Below are positions 2,705 to 37,894 of a stretch of DNA of 64,000 nucleotides, piece by piece. The notes beneath the pieces are model-generated. The model saw only the letters and a list, made by a program, of their open reading frames with translations. It was not told the DNA's origin and did not search any database. How positions within the stretch are numbered: the stretch's first letter is position 1; every line of letters starts with the position of its first letter. This stretch comes from Escherichia phage vB_EcoM_G8. The DNA is taken from the sequence record NC_054915.1, one strand, 5' to 3'. Both the position numbers and the translations under genes were made by a program.

Positions 2705-2738
2705 GCTTTCAAAATGAAGAAAGGGGCCGAAGCCCCTT
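2705..2738 (-). terminator. GC hairpin GGGGCCGAAGCCCC, terminator after hoc on minus strand
   Basis: Minus strand reads GGGGCTTCGGCCCC followed by TTTCTTCATTTT. Confidence 0.55.
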
Positions 2739-2742
2739 ATGA

Positions 2743-3879
2743 TTATGGATAGGTATAGATGATACCAGTTTCTAAAGCAGTTTTATGAATGATGTATCCA
2801 TTACGCGATTCTTGGACATCAACTTCTGGATAATCTTTCATCATCTTCTGGAGAGTGTAACGATGCAAGTAGTACTTACTATCTGGATCGTCAGTTTTCC
2901 AATCTTTACCTTCTTCAGTCATTTTTTGGATTTCATCCATAACCCACCAACCGCACCAGATATAAGCTGAAGTACGATGTGGAAGAGGATGAACATAAGG
3001 TAATTCACCTTCTGGTTCTGGAGCAACTTTATCAGTTACCTGAACTTGACCTGTTGCTGTAATAGTTTTGCTATCATAATCAGCAGCAGTAACAGTTGCA
3101 GTAACTTCAATAGTTTGACTTCCAATAGATGAGGTATCAACGGTATATACATTAGTTGACCCTTCTACAGGAGAAGAATCTTTCTTCCATGAATAAGCAA
3201 TTTGTGCTTCTTCTGGTGCGCCAGTAACATTAGCAGTAAATGTAGCCGAAGCATCTTGTTGAACGTTAATAGAAGGAGGAGTCAATGTAACCTGTGGATT
3301 CATTGTCTTCTTATTAACCGTTAATGATACTTCATTAGAAGTAACTTCTTTTGCATCATAATCTGTCGCGGTTACTTGAGCTACACACTTGATTTTTTTA
3401 ACTCCACTTATAGTTGGAGTATAGCTAAATGTAGAGTTAGTTTCTCCACCAACTTGTGAATCATCTACATACCACTGATACGTAGCAGACGCTCCAACGG
3501 GTTGAGAAGCTAAGGCAGCAGTAAATTCAACAGCTGTTCCGATTACGCCAGCATCAGGGCTACCAGGAGTTACGGCTAAAGTAGTTGTTTGTGTCTTATT
3601 TTGAACTGTGATAGTTGTAGTAGCTTCTGCTGTTTCAGCTTCAGCTTCAGCTTCTGGAACTGTATTTGTTGCAACTACTTTAATAGTCTTTTGACCGGCA
3701 GGTCCTTTTAATACATAATTAAAAGTTGCTGACGTTTCTTCCTGTTGAACATTATCTACGCTCCAAGCATAGGTAATAGTTCCACCTCCAGTTTCACCAC
3801 TGGGTGTAGCAGTAAACTGCTGAGTCTGATCTATAACTCCAGTAGGTGTTTTAGGAGTTATATCAACTGTAAAAGTCAT
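2743..3879 (-). CDS. hoc: Highly immunogenic outer capsid protein Hoc (Ig-like repeats)
   Basis: 378-aa ORF with repeated Thr/Val-rich Ig-like segments; size and position match T4 hoc. Confidence 0.88.
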   Translation of the reverse strand: MTFTVDITPKTPTGVIDQTQQFTATPSGETGGGTITYAWSVDNVQQEETSATFNYVLKGPAGQKTIKVVATNTVPEAEAEAETAEATTTITVQNKTQTTTLAVTPGSPDAGVIGTAVEFTAALASQPVGASATYQWYVDDSQVGGETNSTFSYTPTISGVKKIKCVAQVTATDYDAKEVTSNEVSLTVNKKTMNPQVTLTPPSINVQQDASATFTANVTGAPEEAQIAYSWKKDSSPVEGSTNVYTVDTSSIGSQTIEVTATVTAADYDSKTITATGQVQVTDKVAPEPEGELPYVHPLPHRTSAYIWCGWWVMDEIQKMTEEGKDWKTDDPDSKYYLHRYTLQKMMKDYPEVDVQESRNGYIIHKTALETGIIYTYP

Positions 3880-3888
3880 AAGTTATCC

Positions 3889-4569
3889 TTATTTTAATGT
3901 TACGAAAGAAGAGTTGCGTGTTTCACGAATTAAAACTGATCCATCACGATTAATGTAATAAATTAAGCTAAATAAAGTTTGGTGTGCTGACGCATGCTCA
4001 AAACTAGTTGGGTGAGATTTCCAATCCGGAGTTTCAGCTATCCATTGATAAATCCACCAAGGAACAGTGCAGAATCCTGGATTTTTTCCAATCAGCTGAA
4101 GATTCGGACTAAAGTTTTCCGGAAGAGTAAATACAGACGGCTTTTCAGATTCAATAATCTCAGCTACAGCCTGTTCAAATTTTTCTTCAACAAAAGGAGT
4201 ATCTTCAATCAAAACTGAGGTATTTTCAGGAATTTTATCCGTTTCTACTACTTCAATTTTAATGTCAGATTTAACCGGAGAATCAATCAGAAGTGCTGCT
4301 TCTGGATTGACTTCTTCATCGTCATATTTTAATCCCTCTGCGGCATCAGCAGCATCAATTAAGTCTTTAATAGATAACCCATCAGTCTCTGGCATAGGTT
4401 CACTAGCGAGCTTCTGGAGGGCTTCTTCAATATCATTAACGATATTATCAAAAGATTTATTCTTTTTGACCTTTATACCAAACTGTTCAGCATATTCAGC
4501 TAATTTAGCTTTAGCTTCTTTGTTATCATCAAGAGCCTTCAGCTCTGCAATATAATCTTTATCTATCAT
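3889..4569 (-). CDS. inh: Inhibitor of prohead protease Inh
   Basis: 226-aa ORF, same size and position as T4 inh. Confidence 0.8.
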   Translation of the reverse strand: MIDKDYIAELKALDDNKEAKAKLAEYAEQFGIKVKKNKSFDNIVNDIEEALQKLASEPMPETDGLSIKDLIDAADAAEGLKYDDEEVNPEAALLIDSPVKSDIKIEVVETDKIPENTSVLIEDTPFVEEKFEQAVAEIIESEKPSVFTLPENFSPNLQLIGKNPGFCTVPWWIYQWIAETPDWKSHPTSFEHASAHQTLFSLIYYINRDGSVLIRETRNSSFVTLK

Positions 4570-4582
4570 AATATTTCCTCAG

Positions 4583-4590
4583 TATAAATA
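4583..4590 (+). promoter_or_regulatory. T4 late promoter box TATAAATA upstream of uvsW
   Basis: Exact TATAAATA about 30 nt upstream of the uvsW ATG. Confidence 0.5.
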
Positions 4591-4619
4591 TAGATATATT
4601 TATTACATGGTATTTAGAC

Positions 4620-6131
4620 ATGACTGACATTAAAGTACATTTTTATGATTTTAGTCACGTGAGAATTGATTGTGAAGAAAGTACATTTCATGAACTCCGT
4701 GATTTCTTTAGCTTTGAAGCTGATGGGTATCGTTTTAATCCGAAGTACAGATATGGCCACTGGGATGGACGAATCCGTCTTTTAGATTATAATCGACTTC
4801 TTCCATTCGGCTTAGTCGGGCAAATTAAAAAGTTCTGTGATAACTTTGGCTATAAAGCCTGGATTGACCCACAAATTAACGAAAAAGAAGAATTATCAAG
4901 AAAAGATTTTGATGAATGGCTTTCTAAATTAGAAATCTATTCAGGAAATAAAAGAATTGAACCACATTGGTATCAAAAAGATGCAGTGTTCGAAGGATTA
5001 GTTAATCGTCGTAGAATTCTTAATCTTCCAACATCCGCTGGTAAATCGTTAATTCAAGCTTTGCTTGCGCGATATTATTTGGAAAATTATGAAGGTAAAA
5101 TTCTTATCATTGTTCCAACAACTGCTCTGACAACTCAGATGGCTGATGACTTCGTCGACTATCGTTTATTCAGCCATGCAATGATAAAGAAAATTGGTGG
5201 CGGAGCATCAAAAGATGATAAATATAAAAATGATGCACCAGTCGTTGTTGGTACATGGCAAACTGTAGTAAAACAACCGAAAGAATGGTTCTCACAGTTT
5301 GGAATGATGATGAATGATGAATGCCATCTTGCTACAGGAAAAAGTATTTCATCTATCATATCAGGTTTAAATAACTGCATGTTCAAATTCGGTTTGTCTG
5401 GTTCATTACGTGATGGCAAAGCCAATATCATGCAGTATGTTGGAATGTTTGGTGAAATATTTAAGCCAGTAACGACTTCTAAGTTAATGGAAGATGGACA
5501 AGTAACTGAGCTAAAAATTAATAGTATTTTTCTTCGCTATCCCGATGAGTTCACTACTAAATTAAAGGGAAAAACTTATCAAGAAGAAATAAAAATTATT
5601 ACTGGGCTTAGTAAAAGAAATAAATGGATCGCTAAATTAGCTATTAAGCTTGCACAAAAAGATGAAAACGCTTTTGTCATGTTTAAACATGTATCGCATG
5701 GTAAAGCTATTTTCGATTTAATTAAAAATGAATACGATAAAGTTTATTACGTATCAGGGGAAGTTGATACCGAAACCCGCAACGTAATGAAAACTTTAGC
5801 TGAAAACGGTAAAGGAATAATTATAGTAGCGAGTTATGGTGTATTTTCTACTGGTATTTCAGTTAAAAATCTGCATCACGTTGTTTTAGCGCATGGTGTT
5901 AAATCAAAAATCATTGTATTACAAACAATCGGTCGTGTATTACGTAAGCATGGTTCTAAGACAATAGCAACGGTCTGGGACCTCATAGATGACGCGGGCG
6001 TAGTTTCTAAATCAAAAACATCTTCTAAAAAATACTCGCATTTAAACTATCTTTTAAAACATGGACTTGATCGTATTCAGCGTTATGCTGATGAAAAGTT
6101 TAATTATGTGATGAAAGAGGTTAAACTTTGA
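4620..6131 (+). CDS. uvsW: UvsW DNA/RNA helicase (SF2)
   Basis: 503-aa ORF, N-terminus MTDIKVHFYDFSHVRIDCEE..., Walker A-like PTSAGKS and DECH box (MMMNDECH). Confidence 0.92.
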   Translation: MTDIKVHFYDFSHVRIDCEESTFHELRDFFSFEADGYRFNPKYRYGHWDGRIRLLDYNRLLPFGLVGQIKKFCDNFGYKAWIDPQINEKEELSRKDFDEWLSKLEIYSGNKRIEPHWYQKDAVFEGLVNRRRILNLPTSAGKSLIQALLARYYLENYEGKILIIVPTTALTTQMADDFVDYRLFSHAMIKKIGGGASKDDKYKNDAPVVVGTWQTVVKQPKEWFSQFGMMMNDECHLATGKSISSIISGLNNCMFKFGLSGSLRDGKANIMQYVGMFGEIFKPVTTSKLMEDGQVTELKINSIFLRYPDEFTTKLKGKTYQEEIKIITGLSKRNKWIAKLAIKLAQKDENAFVMFKHVSHGKAIFDLIKNEYDKVYYVSGEVDTETRNVMKTLAENGKGIIIVASYGVFSTGISVKNLHHVVLAHGVKSKIIVLQTIGRVLRKHGSKTIATVWDLIDDAGVVSKSKTSSKKYSHLNYLLKHGLDRIQRYADEKFNYVMKEVKL

Positions 6132-6820
6132 ATTATAAATTAATATATGATAATTTAATTAATAGAGCCCAGAATCGGGCTCGCCTTAATGGATACACTG
6201 AAACACATCATATAATTCCTAGATGTATGGGTGGTACAAATGATAAGTGTAATTTAGTAGAACTAACGGCTGAAGAACATTTTATAGCCCATAAACTTTT
6301 AGCTAAAATTCATCCAAACCATTACGGTATAATTAAAGCTGTTATATGTATGGGGATGAATTCAAATACTCATGAAAGACACGTCAATAAATCTTACGCA
6401 TGGGAACGTCGTAAAATGGCAGAACTTCAATCCGGCGAAGGTAATCCATTTTACGGAAAACACCATACGGAAGAACATAAACAATATATGTCAAAACTCA
6501 TGAAAAGTCGTCCAATTACATGGGGAAATAAAATTAGTAAAACTAAAAGAATGAACCCAACGAAATGGACTGAAGAAGCTAAAAGATTACATTCAATCAA
6601 TCAATCGGGTAAAAATAACGGCATGTATGGAAGGAAACATTCCGCTAAATCTATTCAGAAAATTAAAGATAACATGCCAGATAATTCAGGAGCTAATAAC
6701 CCAGCTGCTAAACCTATAGAAGTAAATGGTGTTAAGTATAAATGTATGAAAGATGCTTCTAAAGCTACTGGATTATCAATGTACAAACTAAGAATACTTA
6801 GAAAAACAGTCAATTTATAA
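6128..6820 (+). CDS. HNH-family homing endonuclease with NUMOD3-like repeats; apparent TTG start overlapping the uvsW stop
   Basis: HNH motif ETHHIIPRCMGGTNDKCNLVELTAEEHFIAH; three repeats of the form G-x-x-N-P/G-x-YGK/R-x-H-x(3-4)-K; GAGG about 9 nt upstream of TTG. Confidence 0.78.
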   Translation: MNYKLIYDNLINRAQNRARLNGYTETHHIIPRCMGGTNDKCNLVELTAEEHFIAHKLLAKIHPNHYGIIKAVICMGMNSNTHERHVNKSYAWERRKMAELQSGEGNPFYGKHHTEEHKQYMSKLMKSRPITWGNKISKTKRMNPTKWTEEAKRLHSINQSGKNNGMYGRKHSAKSIQKIKDNMPDNSGANNPAAKPIEVNGVKYKCMKDASKATGLSMYKLRILRKTVNL

Positions 6821-6835
6821 GGGCTTCGGCCCTTT
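6821..6835 (+). terminator. Hairpin GGGCTTCGGCCC followed by TTT between the HNH ORF and uvsW.1
   Basis: Inverted repeat with UUCG loop read in sequence. Confidence 0.4.
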
Positions 6836-7076
6836 GGAGAAAAAGATGTTACTAAAATTTAAACAATTTCTTTATGAAGCTTCTATTGATGAATTTATGG
6901 GTAAAATTGCCTCTTGTCAAACATTAGAAGGTTTAGAAGAACTTGAAGCTTATTACAAGAAAAGAGTCAAAGAAACTGAATTAAAAGATACTGATGACAT
7001 CTCTGTGAGAGATGCTTTGGCAGGAAAAAGAGCTGAATTAGAAGATTCAGACGATGAAGTAGAAGAAAGCTTTTAA
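6834..7076 (+). CDS. uvsW.1: UvsW.1-like small acidic protein
   Basis: 80-aa ORF with RBS GGAGAAAAAG; in T4 the uvsW.1 product lies immediately after uvsW. Confidence 0.7.
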   Translation: MEKKMLLKFKQFLYEASIDEFMGKIASCQTLEGLEELEAYYKKRVKETELKDTDDISVRDALAGKRAELEDSDDEVEESF

Positions 7077-30346: not shown

Positions 30347-30938
30347 CGTTATGTTCGATTGAGCTCGCTAATTCTCAACCCGTTCTCTTATGAACTGCTA
30401 CATATTACTATGCAGACCAGACTATATCACAATCCCAGAGGGATTCTCCCCATTTCGAGTCGCTTGACTCTACGTCCGAAGACTAGTCGTTGAACCTTGC
30501 TTTGCAATTGTCGCCGTGCCATCGTTTATATGTTGATGGTGATAAATCTTTCTTATCACAATATGGACAATTCAATTGAATTCTATTTGGATTTAATTTA
30601 CATCTGTCATTATGTTTTAGATAAAATCCAGGACCTTTACCAATGTGACCACAGAAATCACATGTGATTTCTTTTTGTGCAGGATGGGTCCCGTTCTTAA
30701 CCATTTCTAATGTTTTTGCTGATGTTCTTTTCTTATGGTCTTCCATCAGAATCTTTAGGTAGGTCCGTCAGCATCTATCCAAATTTTTCTATAGTTCAAT
30801 TGTGCATCCTCTTAAAAGTATAATCATATTATACCAATTAAAGGTGCAAGCAAAACCTTGGCTGCTAGTTTTCCTATAAAGGACTTTCCAGCAATTAAAG
30901 GAGTTTTCGATAAACGTTACCGTTTAAAGGCGCATTTT
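30347..30938 (-). other. Group I self-splicing intron in nrdB (about 590-600 nt; boundaries inferred, +/-10 nt)
   Basis: R2 reading frame is broken between ...YVSFA and ...MEGNAKI by about 0.6 kb containing a zinc-finger ORF; T4 nrdB is known to carry a group I intron at this place. Confidence 0.8.
30483..30746 (-). pseudogene. Truncated intron-encoded endonuclease ORF (I-TevIII-like remnant, zinc-finger part only)
   Basis: 87-aa ORF with CxxC...CxxC motifs but no HNH catalytic core; the T4 nrdB intron ORF is known to be truncated. Confidence 0.6.
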
Positions 30939-31614
30939 ACGCAAAAGATACATAAAAACGAATAGCTTCTAAGGCATTAATAACGTGCAAACAGAGGTAA
31001 AGAGATTTCATTAAAGCACGTTTAGCTTCGGCTTCTTGCTTAATAGCCCGGTTTAAACGAAAGTCGGCATCAGGAGATTCTTTAGCTAGTTCTACAAATT
31101 CTTTAGCATTTTCCCATTCACGGGTTTTAGTTAAAACATCATCATAATAGCGACCGATAGATTCAGCACGTTTCATAATAGCTTCATCTAATACAATCTC
31201 ATCAAATACCTTTGACGGATCAGTATAAAGATTTCGCATGATATGAGTATATGAACGACTGTGAATAGTTTCACTAAAAGTCCATGTAGCAACCCATGTA
31301 TCAAGGCTTGGGTCTGAAAGCAATGGCATAAGTACAGCAGACGGCGCACGACCTTGAATACTATCAAGTAATGATTGATACTTCAGATTATTAGTAAAAA
31401 TATTTTGTTGATACTGAGGAAGCTTATTAAACTGTGCAGCATCCATCATCAAGTTTACTTCTTCCGGACGCCAGAAAAACGAGAGCGAACGTTCAATAAG
31501 TTCTTCAAATACTCGATGCCGTTGAATATCATAACGCGCAATACCAAGACCTGAACCAAAAAACATAGGTTCTTTTAAAACATCGACCTGTTTAGTATTA
31601 AAAACTGTACTCAT
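30939..31614 (-). CDS. nrdB: Ribonucleotide reductase small subunit NrdB, exon 1
   Basis: 225-aa ORF ending ...LEAIRFYVSFA followed by in-frame TAA at intron start. Confidence 0.88.
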
Positions 31615-33206
31615 TATTTTGTCCTGTAAACTAAATTTCCACAGTCCCAGATTCTTCTAAGACCATTTGCATAACAATTTTCTACTTCAGTTATTGTATC
31701 ATCATAATTTTTAAGCTTGTTTTTAAGCTTATGTTTCATATAGCTTGAGCGGTGAAATACCTCTCCTTTATCGACGTACCAATAACATGGCTCAGAGATA
31801 TGACTAAATTCCATGACAGAGTCATAAACATTTGATAATGTACTGCACCATCTTCGATTGCCATAAGATAGACAATTAATTCCTTTTAATAATTTTGAGG
31901 CTCCTCCTACAACGCAAACCCCTAATTTTGAACACATCCTTAAAAGTTCATCACCCGAGCTATATCTAGATTTACCGATAGAAATAATTTGAACTAACTC
32001 ATTATTGTAATAAAGTCCTTTATACGTATGAGCTCCTGAGCAAAATCCTTGAAGATGATTCTTATTAATAAATTCTTTTGCCTCATCCTTATTAACAAAA
32101 CGCGCTTTGCATTTTCGGGCTGGTATTCTTTCTGATAATCCTAATTTATGCTTTATAATGGATTTCCAGATCTCTCTTTTTGTATCATCAATCCATTCAT
32201 TTTCGAAGATGTGAAGTAATTGAATTCCTTGTGCTTCACACATCTCTGTCTTCATCAAATGATAAGTTTCTTTAATTTTATCTGTTTCCTTTGACCCGCT
32301 AGAATGCCAATAAATTCCATCGTATTCTATAGCCAATTTTTTCTCAGGAATGTAAATATCTAATTCATACGGAGGAATAATTTTTCTAGTTTCTACGCAA
32401 TCAAATCCTAGATCTAAAATGAATTGCTCTATAGAACTTTGAGTATAATGAACGTCAATTAGTCCTTTGGATGAAAGAGCTCTATAAGCCGTCATCCGAG
32501 AACAATTTGCTAATTGTTGTAGTTCTTCTATAGAAATTTTGTAATTGATTTTATCTAGTATATCATGATTAATATGACCGTTATTTTTAATAGATTTTCC
32601 TATAGATGAATATAACGATGCCTTATATTCTTCAGTCCAATTTAATTTAGTCTTCTTAGATTTTTCGCGAGATTTTCTAGAATTCAGAATATCAACTGAT
32701 TTACCGTTTTCTATAACTTTTCTCGCTTCTTTCACGCTTTCTAATTGTGAATTATGCGTTACCCCATATCGTTCAATTAAAGTTTTTCTATTTTTATTTC
32801 TTGAAATTTTTTGATGAGTTGTTCCATATTTTTCTAAATAATTTTTGCGTTGAAGTTCAGACAAATATTTTTTATATTTTTCTTTTCCGCCAAAATTTGT
32901 ATCACGGCTTTGAATTCTCTTATCCGCGAAAAATATCCCTGCGCAGGATTTACTACATGTTGCTGGAAATACACGTTTCTTTGCTGTTTTCAGAGAAATG
33001 AAATTTCCACAAACTGCACATTTTAGATCGTTAATGTCAATGCCTTCCATAATTTGGAACACATTGAGCTTAAAATCTATTCCATCAGTTAGAAGAGCTT
33101 TATCTTCTTCTGTTAGTCTAGATTTAAGTTTTTCTTCTCCAAATGGAAGAAACTTTCCGTTTTTGTATATATTATCAAACATAGCGTTATTCTTAGTTAA
33201 CCACAT
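31614..33206 (-). CDS. Putative freestanding homing endonuclease, 530 aa: N-terminal Cys cluster, YG-x-xH repeats, HTH-like segment, Vsr/DUF559-like PD-(D/E)xK nuclease motif
   Basis: Motif YELDIYIPEKKLAIEYDGIYWHSS...GIQLLHIFENEW; no HNH motif; occupies the nrdA-nrdB interval where T4 carries mobE. Confidence 0.6.
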   Translation of the reverse strand: MWLTKNNAMFDNIYKNGKFLPFGEEKLKSRLTEEDKALLTDGIDFKLNVFQIMEGIDINDLKCAVCGNFISLKTAKKRVFPATCSKSCAGIFFADKRIQSRDTNFGGKEKYKKYLSELQRKNYLEKYGTTHQKISRNKNRKTLIERYGVTHNSQLESVKEARKVIENGKSVDILNSRKSREKSKKTKLNWTEEYKASLYSSIGKSIKNNGHINHDILDKINYKISIEELQQLANCSRMTAYRALSSKGLIDVHYTQSSIEQFILDLGFDCVETRKIIPPYELDIYIPEKKLAIEYDGIYWHSSGSKETDKIKETYHLMKTEMCEAQGIQLLHIFENEWIDDTKREIWKSIIKHKLGLSERIPARKCKARFVNKDEAKEFINKNHLQGFCSGAHTYKGLYYNNELVQIISIGKSRYSSGDELLRMCSKLGVCVVGGASKLLKGINCLSYGNRRWCSTLSNVYDSVMEFSHISEPCYWYVDKGEVFHRSSYMKHKLKNKLKNYDDTITEVENCYANGLRRIWDCGNLVYRTK

Positions 33207-33222
33207 CCTTGTGGTAATTATA

Positions 33223-35487
33223 TCATAATTTACAGGATGAACAATCTTCAGCTTTTGGAGTTTCTATTTCATAATCATCAGTACCAGAACCATCGCGGGT
33301 ATTATGATAATAGAAATTTTTTCCGCCAAAATACCAAAAATACAAAAGGTCATCAATCATTATTGACATTGGAACCTTTCCTTTTGGAAAAATCTGTGGG
33401 TCATAATATGTATTTGCTGAAGCTGATTGACATACCCATTTCAGCATAATAGCTACCTGCGTAAGATAAGGTTTATTGCCTTTCTTAGCTAATTTCCACG
33501 TATAATCATATAGGTCTATGTTATGCTCAATATTGGGCACGACTTGATTAAAGGAGCCCTCTTTTGATTCTTTAACAGAGACTGGTCCACGTGGAGGCTC
33601 GATACCGTTTGTACTGTTAGAAACTTGGGAAGATGACTCACATGGCATAAGTGCTGATAATGTGCTATTACGGATGCCAAAGAGCTTAAGGTCTTCCCGC
33701 AGCGACGACCAGTCACAAACGTATTTTGGAGCTGCGATTTGGTCAATCTTTTTATTGTACCAGTCGATAGGTAATTCGCCTCGAGACCAACGAGTGTCTG
33801 AATAATATTCGCAAGGTCCTTTTTCTTTGGCGAGCTTAATGGATGCTTTAATGAGTCCATACTGTAATCTCTCAAATAGTTCATGTGTTAAATCGTTAGC
33901 ATCTTCATAAGAAGCAAAGTTACTTGCCAGCCAAGCCGCATAGTTGGTAACACCTACACCGAGGTTACGACGCTTTTTAGCTTTTTCTGCTTCAGGAACT
34001 GGATATCCTTGATAATCCAAAAGATTATCAAGAGCGCGAACTTGAACTTCTGCCAATTCATTAATTTTATCTTGGTCTTGCCAATCGAAGTTATCCAACA
34101 CAAATGCAGATAACGTGCACAAGCCAATTTCCGCATCAGGACTATTCACATCATTTGTTGGAATAGCAATTTCACAGCACAAGTTACTCTGACGAATGGG
34201 TGCCTTTTCACGAATAAACGGAGTATAGTTATTCGTATTATCAATGAACTGTACATAAATCCTTGCTGTTCCTGAACGTTCAGTCATGAGCAATTCAAAT
34301 AGTTCACGGGCTTTAATACGCTTTTTACGAATATTAGGGTCTTTTTCTGCTGCTTCATATAATTCACGGAAACGGTCTTGGTCTTTAAAATAAGAATAAT
34401 AAAGCTCGCCACCCATTTCATGCGGACTGAACAAAGTAATGTAATCGTTCTTTCCGAATCGTTCCATCATTAGATCATTCAGTTGAACACCATAATCCAT
34501 ATGACGAATGCGGTTTTCTTCTACACCTTTGTTATTTTTCAAAACAAGAAGATTTTCAACTTCCAAATGCCAAATAGGATAATAAGCAGTAGCAGCGCCG
34601 CCACGAATTCCACCTTGTGAGCATGATTTAACAGCAGTCTGAAAATGTTTCCAAAAAGGAATAACACCAGTATGGCGTACTTCACCCATGCCAATCTTAG
34701 AACCTTCGGCACGAATCATACCAACGTTAATACCAATTCCAGCACGTTTGGAGATATATTCAACAATTGAAGCGGAAGCCTTATTGATAGACTTTAATGA
34801 ATCACCTGCCTCAATAACAACACATGAACTAAACTGTCGAGTCGGAGTACGACAACCAGCCATAATAGGAGTTGGTAATGAAATCTGTCGAGTAGATACT
34901 GCTTCATAAAAACGGATAACGTGTTTTAATCTATCAACAGGTTCATCTTGATGCAGTGCCATTCCAATAGTCATAAATGCAAACTGTGGAGTTTCATAAA
35001 TTTGACCAGTGGTTTTATCTTTAACTAAATATTTTTCTTTTAATTGCATCGCCCCGGAATAAGTAAATTCCATATCCCGCTCGTGCTTAATTTTTGATTC
35101 TAAAAATGTAATTTCTTCTGCTGAATATTTTGACAATAATTCAGGGTCATATTTACCTGCATTTACACAATAAGAAATATGGTCAATAAATGAACGTGGT
35201 TCATACTGCCCATAAACATGCTTACGAAGAGCGAACATTAAACAACGTGCAGCTACATATTGGTAATCAGGCTCTTCAACCGAAATAGAATTCGCAGCGG
35301 CCTTAATGACAATAGTCTGAATATCATCAGTTGTCATTCCATCACGGAGATAAGATTTAATATTTTCATATAATTCATAAGGATCTACTGATGTTCCTTC
35401 AGCTGCCCAAGATAAAACTTTAATAATTTTTTGTGGGTCAAAGCTCTGAGAAACACCACTACTTTTGATAACATTAATTAATTGCAT
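33223..35487 (-). CDS. nrdA: Ribonucleotide reductase large subunit NrdA
   Basis: 754-aa ORF (same length as T4 NrdA) with N-terminal ATP-cone and C-terminal CSSCKL tail. Confidence 0.95.
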   Translation of the reverse strand: MQLINVIKSSGVSQSFDPQKIIKVLSWAAEGTSVDPYELYENIKSYLRDGMTTDDIQTIVIKAAANSISVEEPDYQYVAARCLMFALRKHVYGQYEPRSFIDHISYCVNAGKYDPELLSKYSAEEITFLESKIKHERDMEFTYSGAMQLKEKYLVKDKTTGQIYETPQFAFMTIGMALHQDEPVDRLKHVIRFYEAVSTRQISLPTPIMAGCRTPTRQFSSCVVIEAGDSLKSINKASASIVEYISKRAGIGINVGMIRAEGSKIGMGEVRHTGVIPFWKHFQTAVKSCSQGGIRGGAATAYYPIWHLEVENLLVLKNNKGVEENRIRHMDYGVQLNDLMMERFGKNDYITLFSPHEMGGELYYSYFKDQDRFRELYEAAEKDPNIRKKRIKARELFELLMTERSGTARIYVQFIDNTNNYTPFIREKAPIRQSNLCCEIAIPTNDVNSPDAEIGLCTLSAFVLDNFDWQDQDKINELAEVQVRALDNLLDYQGYPVPEAEKAKKRRNLGVGVTNYAAWLASNFASYEDANDLTHELFERLQYGLIKASIKLAKEKGPCEYYSDTRWSRGELPIDWYNKKIDQIAAPKYVCDWSSLREDLKLFGIRNSTLSALMPCESSSQVSNSTNGIEPPRGPVSVKESKEGSFNQVVPNIEHNIDLYDYTWKLAKKGNKPYLTQVAIMLKWVCQSASANTYYDPQIFPKGKVPMSIMIDDLLYFWYFGGKNFYYHNTRDGSGTDDYEIETPKAEDCSSCKL

Positions 35488-35804: not shown

Positions 35805-36021
35805 ATTGTTTTTCCGTTAAAACAGTAATATCATAGTAACAATCAGAAGAAGTTTTAACTGTAGAAATTTTATTATCAAAATACTCACGAGTCATTTTAT
35901 GAGTATAATATTTTTTGCCATAAATGATAATAGGCTGTTCTGGTCCTGGAACTTCTAACTCGCTTGGATTAGGAAGTGTAAAAAGAACAACACCAGAAGT
36001 ATCTTTAAATCGTAAAATCAT
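35758..36021 (-). CDS. Conserved hypothetical protein (nrdA.2 position)
   Basis: 87-aa ORF. Confidence 0.5.
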
Positions 36022-36329
36022 ATTGCCATTTTCCCTTTAATTGCTGGATGCGATTCATAATTTTCAAGGATAAAATCTTTCGGTTTCATGTATTCAGTTA
36101 ACCAGTAAAGCTGTGTTTCGGTGTCACAATTTCCAAACTCTATAGGCCAATCAATTTTAAGTTCACACAGTTCTTTAGGCTCACGACGTAAAATTTCTTT
36201 ACATTGCTCAGTATGATTCATATAGATATGAGTATTACCACCGGAAAATATCAAATCTCCCGGAATAAGATTACACATCTTAGCCACAATATGCGTCAAG
36301 GCAGCGTACGAGGCAATGTTGAATGGTAG
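36018..36329 (-). CDS. td: Thymidylate synthase, exon 2
   Basis: Translation [39 protein letters not shown]... continues the TS fold; exon begins right after intron-terminal ...CATAATG. Confidence 0.9.
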
Positions 36330-37345
36330 CATTATGTTCAGATAAGGTCGTTAATCTTACCCCGGAATTATATCCAGCTGCATGTCACCATGCAGATCAG
36401 ACTATATCTCCAACTTGTTAAAGCAAGTTGTCTATCGTTTCGAGTCACTTGACCCTACTCCCCAAAGGGATAGTCGTTAGGCATTTATGTGGAACCAATT
36501 CCATTTATCAGATTTTACACGATAAGTAACTAATCCAGACGAAATTTTAAAATGTCTAGCTGCATCTGCTGCACAATCAAAAATAACCCCATCACATGAA
36601 ATCTTTTTAATATTACTAGGCTTTTTACCTTTCATCTTTTCTGATATTTTAGATTTAGTTATGTCTGAATGCTTATGATTAAAGAATGAATTATTTTCAC
36701 CTGAACGATTTCTGCATTTACTACAAGTATAAGCAGAAGTTTGTATGCGAACACCGCACTTACAAAACTTATGGGTTTCTGGATTCCAACGCCCGTTTTT
36801 ACTTCCGGGTTTACTGTAAAGAGCTTTCCGACCATCAGGTCCAAGTTTAAGCATCTTAGCTTTAACAGTTTCAGAACGTTTCTTAATAATTTCTTCTTTT
36901 AATGGATGCGTAGAACATGTATCACCAAACGTTGCATCAGCAATATTGTATCCATTAATTTTAGAATTAAGCTCTTTAATCCAAAAATTTTCTCGTTCAA
37001 TAATCAAATCTTTCTCATATGGAATTTCTTCCAAAATAGAACATTCAAACACATTACCATGTTTGTTAAAAGACCTCTGAAGTTTTATAGAAGAATGGCA
37101 TCCTTTTTCTAAATCTTTAAAATGCCTCTTCCATCTCTTTTCAAAATCTTTAGCACTTCCTACATATACTTTATTGTTTAAAGTATTTTTAATCTGATAA
37201 ATTCCGCTTTTCATAAATACCTCTTTAAATATAGAAGTATTTATTAAAGGGCAGTCCTACAATTTAGCACGGGATTGTCTACTAGAGAGGTTCCCCGTTT
37301 AGATAGATTACAAGTATAAGTCACCTTATACTCAGGCCTCAATTA
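36330..37345 (-). other. td group I intron (1016 nt)
   Basis: Minus strand after exon 1 reads TAATTGAGGCCTGAGTATAAGGTGA..., the 5' end of the T4 td intron as I remember it; length matches. Confidence 0.9.
36477..37214 (-). CDS. Intron-encoded GIY-YIG homing endonuclease I-TevI (245 aa)
   Basis: N-terminus MKSGIYQIKNTLNNKVYVGSAKDFEKRWKRH (GIY...YVG motif); 245 aa; inside td intron. Confidence 0.93.
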   Translation of the reverse strand: MKSGIYQIKNTLNNKVYVGSAKDFEKRWKRHFKDLEKGCHSSIKLQRSFNKHGNVFECSILEEIPYEKDLIIERENFWIKELNSKINGYNIADATFGDTCSTHPLKEEIIKKRSETVKAKMLKLGPDGRKALYSKPGSKNGRWNPETHKFCKCGVRIQTSAYTCSKCRNRSGENNSFFNHKHSDITKSKISEKMKGKKPSNIKKISCDGVIFDCAADAARHFKISSGLVTYRVKSDKWNWFHINA

Positions 37346-37894
37346 ACCCAAGAAAACATCTACTGATCGTTGATACCACTGCAAATCCAAATAACCATTA
37401 CGCACATTAAACTGATAGAACATATGACAGGGCGGTAATGCCATTTGATTGATTTCAGCTGGATTCCATGCTGAAACGATTTGACGTCGATCAGTTGGTA
37501 ATTTTTTAATACGATCAATAGTTTCAACTAATTGATCCACACCACCGAAATCACGCCATTGTTTACCGTATATAGGACCAAGTTCACCACTATGATATCC
37601 TAGGTCTTTAGCCTGGTTTTCATAGTTATCGTCCCAAATAGTTTTACCTTGAATAAGACTACCATGAGTGCGAAGACGTAAATCATTAACATTGGTAGAA
37701 CCGGAAATAAACCATAAAAGCTCAGCAACGCATGCATTCCAGGCGAGCTTCTTAGTTGTTACTGCAGGAAAACCTTTGGTTAAATCCCAACGCAATTTAG
37801 TACCGAACAGAGCAATTGTTCCTGTGCCCGTTCGGTCATCGGTTTCATAGCCATTTTCAAAAATGTCTTTAATTAAATCTTGGTATTGTTTCAT
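37346..37894 (-). CDS. td: Thymidylate synthase, exon 1
   Basis: 183 codons MKQYQDLIKDIFENGYE...WYQRSVDVFLG then intron. Confidence 0.92.

Follow-up and report, generated by a model that had tools for sequence, protein, structure and literature searches.

Hef of phage U5 was reportedly named in 2005, in an article by Sandegren, Nord and Sjöberg in Nucleic Acids Res 33:6203, and is said to be a homing endonuclease replacing mobE. Excerpts of later work state that U5 hef takes the place of mobE and that its product is an endonuclease active close to its own locus (PMC3322345), and that nrdB is the cleavage target of Hef (PMC2988022). In T4 the nrdA-nrdB interval is filled by mobE, and also holds nrdB.1. 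According to passages of two papers, MobE targets nrdB and acts in trans to mobilise the neighbouring intron with its defunct I-TevIII (PMC2790892; PMC2988022). Taylor et al. assigned Hef-type enzymes in 2011 to the Vsr-like EDxHD family, whose prototype is I-Bth0305I (PMC3239194).

A second known system is Mom of phage Mu (8bv8, PF25680), a stand-alone enzyme of 241 aa (231 aa in the older numbering) without a nuclease; its family carries out tRNA-dependent modification of adenines in DNA. Its active-site residues are H58, Y59, R111, S124, D149, R151 and Y159 (PMC13219725). Sections of Iyer et al. 2021 describe Mom-REase fusions of jumbo phages, in which the order of the REase and Mom domains is that of Hef (PMC7824862).

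The window analysed here is a stretch of 64,000 nucleotides from Escherichia phage vB_EcoM_G8 (NC_054915.1), to which all positions refer. The gene between its nrdA and nrdB is very probably hef, coding for a free-standing homing endonuclease in the nrdA-nrdB spacer and replacing the mobE of T4. Hef is already known, having been named and described in U5 in 2005 and assigned to the Vsr-like enzymes in 2011. The gene call is therefore not new, and it has little significance, since slot, DNA cutting and family are already published. The initial annotation, made from the sequence alone, had proposed a selfish non-HNH endonuclease in the mobE slot. It thereby arrived at the published Hef of U5, which is a useful calibration point. 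The less-noticed point is the likeness of the C-terminal part of Hef to Mom.

The hef locus and its neighbours

The coding sequence (31614..33206, minus strand, stop codon included) specifies 530 aa and is the lone entry of that length in the ORF list, in agreement with the initial annotation of a 530-aa ORF filling the nrdA-nrdB gap. It is flanked by nrdA (33223..35487) and by exon 1 of nrdB (30937..31614). The nrdA stop is separated from the hef ATG by 16 nt, and the TAA stop of hef overlaps the nrdB ATG (TAATG). That this ORF is a real gene is clear from its relatives: over 2,500 homologues reach E ≤ 1e-5, and residues 7-529 match PHROG 3339 ‘homing endonuclease’ (E 5e-152). Its 5′ end is ambiguous and the product measures 530 or 522 aa. 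The majority of homologues begin where this protein has M9 (window position 33182), an alternative start that gives the shorter product; residues 1-6 are poorly modelled by AF2; and the ATG from which the U5 CDS is annotated, 14 codons further upstream, is AAG here.

The protein is identical to U5 Hef (ABI48935) at 524 of 530 residues, with six substitutions, and the gene is 98.3% identical at the DNA level to the U5 record AY262133.2. This full-length orthology places it in Hef and PHROG 3339. In U5, hef likewise lies between nrdA and nrdB and likewise overlaps nrdB as TAATG. The two phages differ in the nrdB intron next door, which in U5 is ~1.09 kb long and encodes full-length I-TevIII; in the window it is a ~0.6-kb T4-type group I intron with a truncated ORF (30483..30746, minus strand). 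This ORF is identical to T4 I-TevIII at 85 of 87 aa, and the T4 record annotates the truncated I-TevIII as ‘defective DNA endonuclease’; the defunct intron endonuclease claimed for this site is thus a T4-type I-TevIII remnant. Genomes with hef have no nrdB intron (N2) or one of ~0.3, ~0.42, ~0.6 or ~1.09 kb. An obligatory partnership of hef with a defunct nrdB intron was rejected, as hef is found with every state of this intron.

Among T-even-type records, 15 of 545 carry hef. Alignment of both junctions with the hef-less phage RB14 delimits the cassette precisely (31615..33215, minus strand). Homology to RB14 stops 7 nt past the nrdA stop codon (10 nt including the stop: TGATATAATT) and restarts at the nrdB ATG, the cassette substituting for 41 nt of the 51-nt spacer of RB14. 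In the hef-less records among the matches listed (H16-H30), nrdA and nrdB lie directly side by side in a 444-bp span in 15/15 cases. By its distribution and junctions, hef is a free-standing, optional gene. Its GC content is 31.3%, against 37% in the flanks, and no second Hef-like copy occurs in the 64-kb window. Neither the T4 late-promoter core (TATAAATA) nor a MotA box was found in window positions 31500-33500, which cover hef and its flanks; hef is therefore probably transcribed by read-through from nrdA transcripts.

A three-part protein

The N-terminal region contains a four-Cys cluster, CxxC...CSxxC (residues 63-88; 32943..33020, minus strand), which is a probable zinc finger. The residues C63, C66, C84 and C88 are invariant in an alignment of 50 sequences and are present in 101-115 of 121 sequences. 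A helical region follows (residues about 94-215; 32562..32927, minus strand), modelled by AF2 as helices with pLDDT 81-93 and carrying two K-x3-T-x3-(K/R)YG repeats. By homology it is of the DUF7487 type: the Pfam profile (PF24308) matches 34 of the 50 aligned relatives (best E 1.3e-46), including P0011 with 51% identity, and has no match in the window protein itself at E ≤ 1. The YG repeats escaped a BLAST comparison of residues 90-215 with themselves and show up solely in the family alignment and as short motifs. The next segment (residues 222-246; 32469..32543, minus strand) is helix-turn-helix-like, with AF2 helices at 226-233 and 237-246 and a weak match to Pfam HTH_11 (E 0.12). NCBIfam gave no match. 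The best explanation of zinc finger, DUF7487-type repeats and HTH is a putative DNA-binding region. All motif strings quoted in the initial annotation are present: the cluster C63-x2-C66...C84-x3-C88, the repeats LEKYGTTHQK (124-133) and IERYGVTHNSQ (144-154), and the segments ISIEELQQLANCSRMTAYRAL (224-244), YELDIYIPEKKLAIEYDGIYWHSS (280-303) and GIQLLHIFENEW (327-338).

The initial annotation had further proposed a C-terminal Vsr/DUF559-like nuclease with a D...IE-x-DG-x-x-WH-type signature, to be checked by profile searches, by structure prediction of residues about 250-350 and by comparison with T4 MobE. The nuclease type is confirmed by profile and AF2 fold; its placement needs correction. 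The Vsr/DUF559-type domain, of the EDxHD lineage, is central (residues about 253-355; 32142..32450, minus strand), with a 175-aa domain beyond it. I-Bth0305I (3r3p) is the sole solved structure found by sequence, with E 0.028 for the single window sequence, 1.5e-4 with the family profile and 2.6e-7 with the family member P0087. For residues 251-356, AF2 predicts a nuclease fold whose best Foldseek match is again 3r3p, followed by Vsr and DUF559 structures. Pfam MTES_1575 and DUF559 match the window protein below their gathering scores.

The key residues of this domain are D283, E294, H301, H316 and K319, of which E294 is present in 120/121 sequences and the other four in 121/121. D283 corresponds to D196 of I-Bth0305I, E294 to its conserved acidic residue, D296 to the N208 position and H301 to H213. 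The proposed signature thus stands for D283, E294 and H301; the literal EDxHD residues, E...D...x(acidic)...H...D, are only partly kept. Where I-Bth0305I has the last Asp of this motif (D222) and Vsr has D97, Hef has His316, which all 121 Hef relatives share. Gln256 stands in this protein where 108/121 sequences have the first Glu of the family, and Ser258 where 89/121 have a second one; this segment has no direct alignment to E170 of I-Bth0305I. D309 was dismissed as a candidate for the missing last Asp, since only 71 of 121 relatives have it and since H316 is invariant and aligned without gaps with D222 in P0087. The Vsr-like PD-(D/E)xK fold and significant similarity to the I-Bth0305I catalytic domain are both present. 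Because the five-residue motif is only partly kept, we class Hef, on its sequence, as a divergent offshoot within the Vsr-like lineage and not as a literal EDxHD protein. Catalysis is predicted to involve D283, E294, H301 and H316. Both enzymes are bipartite, with an N-terminal DNA-binding region that includes a putative HTH before the nuclease. However, I-Bth0305I is intron-encoded in recA and has 266 aa, a NUMOD N-terminus and a C-terminal nuclease, whereas the free-standing Hef has double the length, begins with the zinc finger and DUF7487 repeats and adds a Mom-like domain after the nuclease.

This last domain (residues 356-530, 175 aa; 31617..32141, minus strand) adopts a GNAT fold and carries the motifs NHLQG (383-387), GGASK (434-438) and SYGNRRW (447-453). 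Its homology to Mom of phage Mu emerges from hhalign and fold comparison, the similarity being specific to Mom; the family profile searched against PDB sequences did not reach Mom. The window protein has no match to Pfam Mom (PF25680) at E ≤ 1 and so lies below the gathering threshold. Its relatives P0059, P0064 and P0101 exceed the cut-off of 27.1 bits with scores of 29.5-33.6, and 6/50 relatives match the profile at E ≤ 0.001.

Four, probably five, of the seven Mom active-site residues are kept. According to hhalign, H58 is H384, R111 is R423, R151 is R452 and Y159 is Y461; Y59 is replaced by L385, and D149 by N450 (N in 93 and D in 28 of 121 sequences). S124 aligns with V430 in hhalign, but S437 seems its likelier structural equivalent: this serine, present in 120/121 sequences, stands at the start of helix α3, and S124 itself is in α3. 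Furthermore, the essential HTH-like insertion of Mom has a counterpart in position: between its last strands, the Hef domain has an insertion with the invariant basic residues R486, K491 and H492. We infer that the domain is mainly a DNA-binding or base-flipping module and not an enzyme. Many of its residues are kept in 120-121 of 121 sequences, a strength of conservation that a passive role in DNA binding would not obviously require. It seems unlikely that the domain is a working base-flipping or adenine-modifying module, which would make Hef a bifunctional nuclease and DNA modifier.

Homing, its candidate target and other explanations

In nrdB, hef is accompanied by the haplotype ACTAAACAGGT (NrdB T7-K8-Q9; 31586..31596, minus strand), where hef-less phages have ACAAATCCAGT (T-N-P). 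The four substitutions in codons 7-9 are common to 15/15 GenBank records with hef and to the window and, among the records seen, occur only there. A 47-mer with the hef-linked haplotype matches records with hef only, and the alternative 47-mer matches 412 records, from all of which the four-substitution haplotype is absent. The 3′-terminal 200 nt of nrdA showed no hef-linked differences. Because the haplotype is perfectly linked to hef, codons 7-9 are a probable target or immunity site, and the exact target of Hef most likely lies within the first ~30 nt of nrdB. For U5 Hef, site-specific cleavage close to its own locus in DNA lacking hef and preferential inheritance in mixed infections are reported (PMC2988022, PMC3322345), and for the window gene the linked haplotype supports them indirectly. 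The linked haplotype could instead be hitch-hiking donor sequence.

The following picture of homing is proposed. When a phage with hef and a hef-less relative infect the same cell, Hef would recognise and cut the recipient DNA at or beside the empty site, most likely in those first ~30 nt of nrdB. The break would then be repaired by recombination with the genome that has hef, so that the recipient acquires the gene together with markers close to it. The donor genome would escape cutting because its own nrdB codons 7-9 carry the four substitutions.

The fusion of a nuclease with a Mom-like domain also invites comparison with a restriction-modification-like conflict system, in which the REase-fold domain would attack host or competing phage DNA in general and the Mom-like domain would protect the phage's own DNA by modifying its adenines. 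Such a system is predicted for the Mom-REase fusions of jumbo phages in sections of Iyer et al. 2021 (PMC7824862). In line with it, nuclease and Mom-like module form the conserved core of the Hef family (47-59% identity across very different phages), the N-termini being variable, and the Mom active-site residues H384, R423, R452 and Y461 are retained, with S437 as a structurally suggested fifth. However, the window protein has Asn in place of D149, a residue whose change to alanine strongly impairs Mom, and Leu in place of Y59, and the four linked nrdB substitutions explain the protection of the genome with hef more simply. In addition, excerpts of two papers report that U5 Hef, which is 99% identical, cuts site-specifically near its own locus (PMC2988022, PMC3322345). 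The sporadic, precisely bounded occurrence of hef in few relatives, together with the multi-copy Hef-like genes of Campylobacter phages, at 11-12 places per genome, fits a selfish element better. A conflict system is thus quite improbable.

Two further explanations concern the nuclease itself. An intact ORF without endonuclease function, kept only by linkage to nrdA and nrdB, would agree with the Gln in place of the first family-motif Glu, and T-even phages do carry defunct endonuclease genes, the neighbouring I-TevIII remnant among them. Such a relic is nevertheless very improbable: every family-invariant nuclease residue is present, the ORF is full-length in 15 independent isolates at 97.6-99.4% DNA identity, and U5 Hef, described as active in excerpts of the papers on it, shares Q256/S258 (the two proteins are identical over residues 241-300). 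Finally, a match of PHROG 559 ‘HNH endonuclease’ to residues 61-528 (E 2e-77) would agree with a divergent MobE-type enzyme with an unrecognised HNH core, a case that the initial annotation had itself raised against its reading, but the PHROG label is a family name and not a tested feature. Both C-terminal domains have other, well-supported folds, and the window protein contains no HNH Pfam family at E ≤ 1, as had been claimed from the absence of an HNH motif. MobE, with 141 aa against 530 aa in Hef, belongs to a different nuclease superfamily and has no sequence similarity to Hef (BLASTP best E 0.96). Pfam search, MobE comparison and the Foldseek result for the nuclease domain together refute an unrecognised HNH core, and a MobE-type HNH enzyme is exceedingly improbable. 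Homing by a Vsr-type nuclease remains the preferred reading.

Meaning for the Hef family

Of possible interest to specialists is the build of Hef: in this protein of three parts, a Vsr-type nuclease and a Mom-like GNAT domain are joined into the conserved core. The Mom-like domain goes unmentioned in excerpts of the homing-endonuclease papers that name Hef (PMC2988022, PMC3239194, PMC3322345), and Hef is unnamed in sections of the comparative-genomics paper on Mom-REase fusions (PMC7824862). In the literature searched, ‘Hef-like’ was not found combined with Mom or GNAT terms. If Hef were bifunctional, it would link the literature on homing endonucleases and that on Mom-REase conflict systems on one family, and the modification might mark or protect the element's own target or, as with Mom, draw on an acyl or aminoacyl-tRNA donor. 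The hef-linked haplotype across public T-even genomes offers a concrete and cheap prediction for the site of recognition or immunity.

A known homing endonuclease gene between nrdA and nrdB

Between nrdA (window 33223..35487), its upstream neighbour, and exon 1 of nrdB (30937..31614), its downstream neighbour, a sole long open reading frame of 530 amino acids occupies positions 31614..33206 on the minus strand. This is the gene proposed in the initial annotation, and all the motif strings quoted there are found in the protein. The hef stop codon overlaps the nrdB start (TAATG), and 16 nt separate the nrdA stop from the hef ATG. The 5′ end is slightly ambiguous, as synthesis may begin at the ATG at 33206 or at Met9 (33182). 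An SD-like AAGG immediately abuts the former, most Hef homologues start at the position of the latter, and residues 1–6 have a pLDDT below 50 in the AF2 model. In the GenBank record of phage U5, the hef CDS starts at an upstream ATG overlapping nrdA; the window has AAG at that place.

A megablast search of phage records with window 31400-33400 matched 545 T-even-type records, only 15 of which match over its full length. For each of the 15 hef-less records listed, the match consists of the nrdA and nrdB flanks alone, with a 444-bp span. The full-length matches include AY262133.2 ('Bacteriophage U5 NrdA, Hef and NrdB'), and the window and U5 proteins are identical at 524/530 residues. Judged by sequence, ORF 31614..33206 encodes Hef, a homing endonuclease that has been characterised before, and is not new. 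Sandegren, Nord and Sjöberg reportedly coined the name in 2005 for 'homing endonuclease-like function'; they are also said to have found that U5 hef takes the place of mobE in the nrdA-nrdB interval and that U5 Hef has endonuclease activity close to its own locus. Both the replacement of mobE and the nearby activity are restated in PMC3322345, and the Edgell review describes cleavage of nrdB by both T4 MobE and U5 Hef (PMC2988022).

One hef+ record, FL18 (PP400780.1), is filed as Mosigvirus and is 97.9% identical to the window over 31400-33400. This points to lateral movement of hef between genera or, alternatively, to an error in the taxonomy of the record.

A Vsr-like nuclease with a modified motif

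In Pfam searches of the window protein, REase_MTES_1575 (residues 258-346, E 1.5e-4) and DUF559 (residues 275-351, E 8.5e-3) are sub-threshold matches and no HNH family is found. The only solved structure reached by sequence search is 3r3p, the catalytic domain of I-Bth0305I, with E 0.028 for the single window sequence, 1.5e-4 for a 49-sequence family profile and 2.6e-7 for the family member P0087 as query. The AF2 model of residues 251-356 (pLDDT 87.8) also has 3r3p as its top Foldseek match (E 6.8e-4, 26% identity), followed by Vsr (1cw0, TM 0.72; 1vsr) and the DUF559 protein 3hrl. The profile and structural matches support the Vsr/DUF559-like nuclease of the initial annotation. Its remark that an HNH motif is missing also holds: Hef shows no similarity to T4 MobE (best E 0.96). 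Neither of the two outcomes named there as refuting the interpretation, a MobE-like protein with an HNH core or a C-terminal domain devoid of a predicted nuclease fold, was encountered. Taylor et al. 2011 counted 'bacteriophage Hef type homing endonucleases' among the further members of the EDxHD (Vsr-like) family, and this classification is therefore already published.

Conservation was counted in an alignment of 121 family members; for residue equivalences, the family profile alignment and a gap-free pairwise alignment of P0087 agree. Every sequence has D283, H301, H316 and K319, and 120/121 have E294. D283 corresponds to D196 of I-Bth0305I and D51 of Vsr, H301 to H213 and H69, and H316 to D222 and D97. 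Where the motif has its last aspartate, the Hef family therefore invariably has histidine. D309, a few residues upstream of H316, occurs in only 71/121 sequences. The nuclease domain typically starts with the pattern S-x-x-E-x-E-I (glutamate in 108/121 and 89/121, respectively), replaced by H-Y-T-Q-S-S-I in the window protein and its closest relatives. Since U5 Hef has this same sequence and is reported active, glutamate at the domain start appears dispensable. Homology and fold place Hef in the Vsr-like lineage, but it does not preserve the 'EDxHD' signature to the letter.

Insertion junctions, nrdB haplotype and neighbouring elements

When the window is compared with hef-less RB14, homology ends 7 nt after the nrdA stop (TGATATAATT) and restarts at the nrdB ATG. 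According to this junction alignment, the hef cassette takes up window 31615-33215 and stands in place of 41 nt of the 51-nt RB14 spacer. In RB14 and hef-less genomes the spacer contains an inverted repeat, GACTC-ATGGAC-GAGTC, which is lost where hef is present and may act, for example, in the processing of mRNA or in controlling nrdB translation.

Over the first 200 nt of nrdB, the window was compared with 7 other hef+ genomes, with 5 genomes that lack hef and with T4. Every hef+ genome in this set has the same four substitutions (nrdB nt 21, 24, 26 and 27), reading ACTAAACAGGT (Thr-Lys-Gln) where hef-less genomes have ACAAATCCAGT (Thr-Asn-Pro). This haplotype spans codons 7-9 (window 31586-31596, nrdB nt 19-29) and comprises N8K, P9Q and a silent change at T7. 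Polymorphisms farther downstream within these 200 nt are independent of hef status, and the last 200 nt of nrdA show no hef-linked differences in the genomes compared. In the phage collection, a 47-mer of the hef-type haplotype matched 14 records, all hef+, and the alternative 47-mer matched 412; FL18, the fifteenth hef+ record, carries the hef-type haplotype with one more change. Linkage to hef is thus perfect (15/15 hef+ records) among public T-even genomes.

Such a pattern would be expected if Hef recognised the nrdB 5′ end of genomes lacking hef and if the four substitutions shielded the hef+ carrier from its own enzyme. The linked haplotype could also represent a short hitch-hiking tract. 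The reading of nrdB as target agrees with the published cleavage of nrdB by Hef (PMC2988022), and codons 7-9 are a narrowly delimited candidate for the target and immunity site.

The initial annotation correctly described an nrdB intron with a defunct endonuclease: an 87-aa ORF (30483-30746, minus strand) is identical at 85/87 positions to the truncated I-TevIII of T4, annotated as defective in the T4 record. By analogy with MobE (PMC2790892), hef could carry this intron along by co-conversion. An obligatory hef-intron pairing is rejected, as the nrdB intron occurs in every state among hef+ genomes: absent in N2, ~0.3 kb in CJY920 and SP21535, ~0.42 kb in SG1, ~0.6 kb with truncated I-TevIII in the window, ESh36 and Manna, and ~1.09 kb with full-length I-TevIII in U5. 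The intron is present in 127 records overall. These states suggest stepwise decay or loss of the intron ORF, independent of hef.

The td gene (window 36018-37894) is also intron-split, with a full-length I-TevI-like GIY-YIG ORF of 245 aa (MKSGIYQIKN..., window 36477-37214). Three endonuclease-type mobile elements, namely I-TevI, hef and the remnant of I-TevIII, thus fall within 7 kb of the window. In the hef+ Salmonella phage Manna (record L010), a distinct 'homing endonuclease' CDS (5303-6013) interrupts nrdA (4324-7001); together with hef (2715-4307), two different selfish endonuclease genes thus lie within ~1 kb of each other in its RNR operon.

Modules flanking the nuclease

In the N-terminal half, the cysteines C63, C66, C84 and C88 do not vary within the close Hef family, which suggests a zinc finger. 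Two (K/R)YG repeats lie in a helical region matched by Pfam DUF7487 in 34/50 relatives; no DUF7487 match is found in the window protein. Residues 222-246 form a helix-turn-helix-like pair in the AF2 model (Pfam HTH_11, E 0.12). More distant relatives retain the nuclease plus Mom-like module (47-59% identity over it) and have different N-terminal modules (DUF723, DUF4379, CapR), a distribution that fits a conserved cleavage core with exchangeable targeting regions.

The initial annotation identified the nuclease segment of the C-terminal half and missed the Mom-like domain that it also contains. Several relatives match PF25680 'Mom' above threshold. When a profile of Hef 356-530 is aligned by hhalign with one built from 32 sequences of the Mom family, the probability is 94.5% (E 8e-8). 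For the full-length AF2 model (pLDDT 91.4), the best Foldseek PDB match is 8bv8, the Mu Mom crystal structure (E 2.8e-6), with GNAT acetyltransferases ranking after it. The proposed active site of Mom comprises H58, Y59, R111, S124, D149, R151 and Y159 (PMC13219725). H58, R111 and Y159 correspond to Hef H384, R423 and Y461, each kept in 120/121 family members, and R151 to R452 (121/121). Y59 is changed to L385, and D149 aligns with N450, a position that is Asn in 93 and Asp in 28 of the 121. S124 is aligned with V430 by hhalign; as S124 is described as a helix α3 serine and S437 (120/121) stands at the start of Hef α3, S437 is probably the equivalent. The Mom pocket is largely kept, with two residues differing, including D149, on which the activity of Mom strongly depends. 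Between its last strands, Hef also carries an insertion (residues 486-516; R486 and K491 invariant, H492 in 114/121), at the same place as the essential HTH-like DNA-binding insertion of Mom.

Some phages have several copies of the Hef-like nuclease plus Mom-like module: Campylobacter phages carry it at 11-12 places in each genome, Dickeya phages and Pseudomonas phage vB_Pa-PAC2 at 3-5, and Lak phages at 2-4. Iyer et al. (2021) described jumbo-phage fusions of a Mom domain with an REase-fold nuclease, for which they predicted a function resembling restriction-modification; in the literature searched, we found no link of this observation to Hef. The remaining interest of the gene lies in the candidate site in nrdB codons 7-9 and in the putative role of a Mom-like domain within a homing enzyme.
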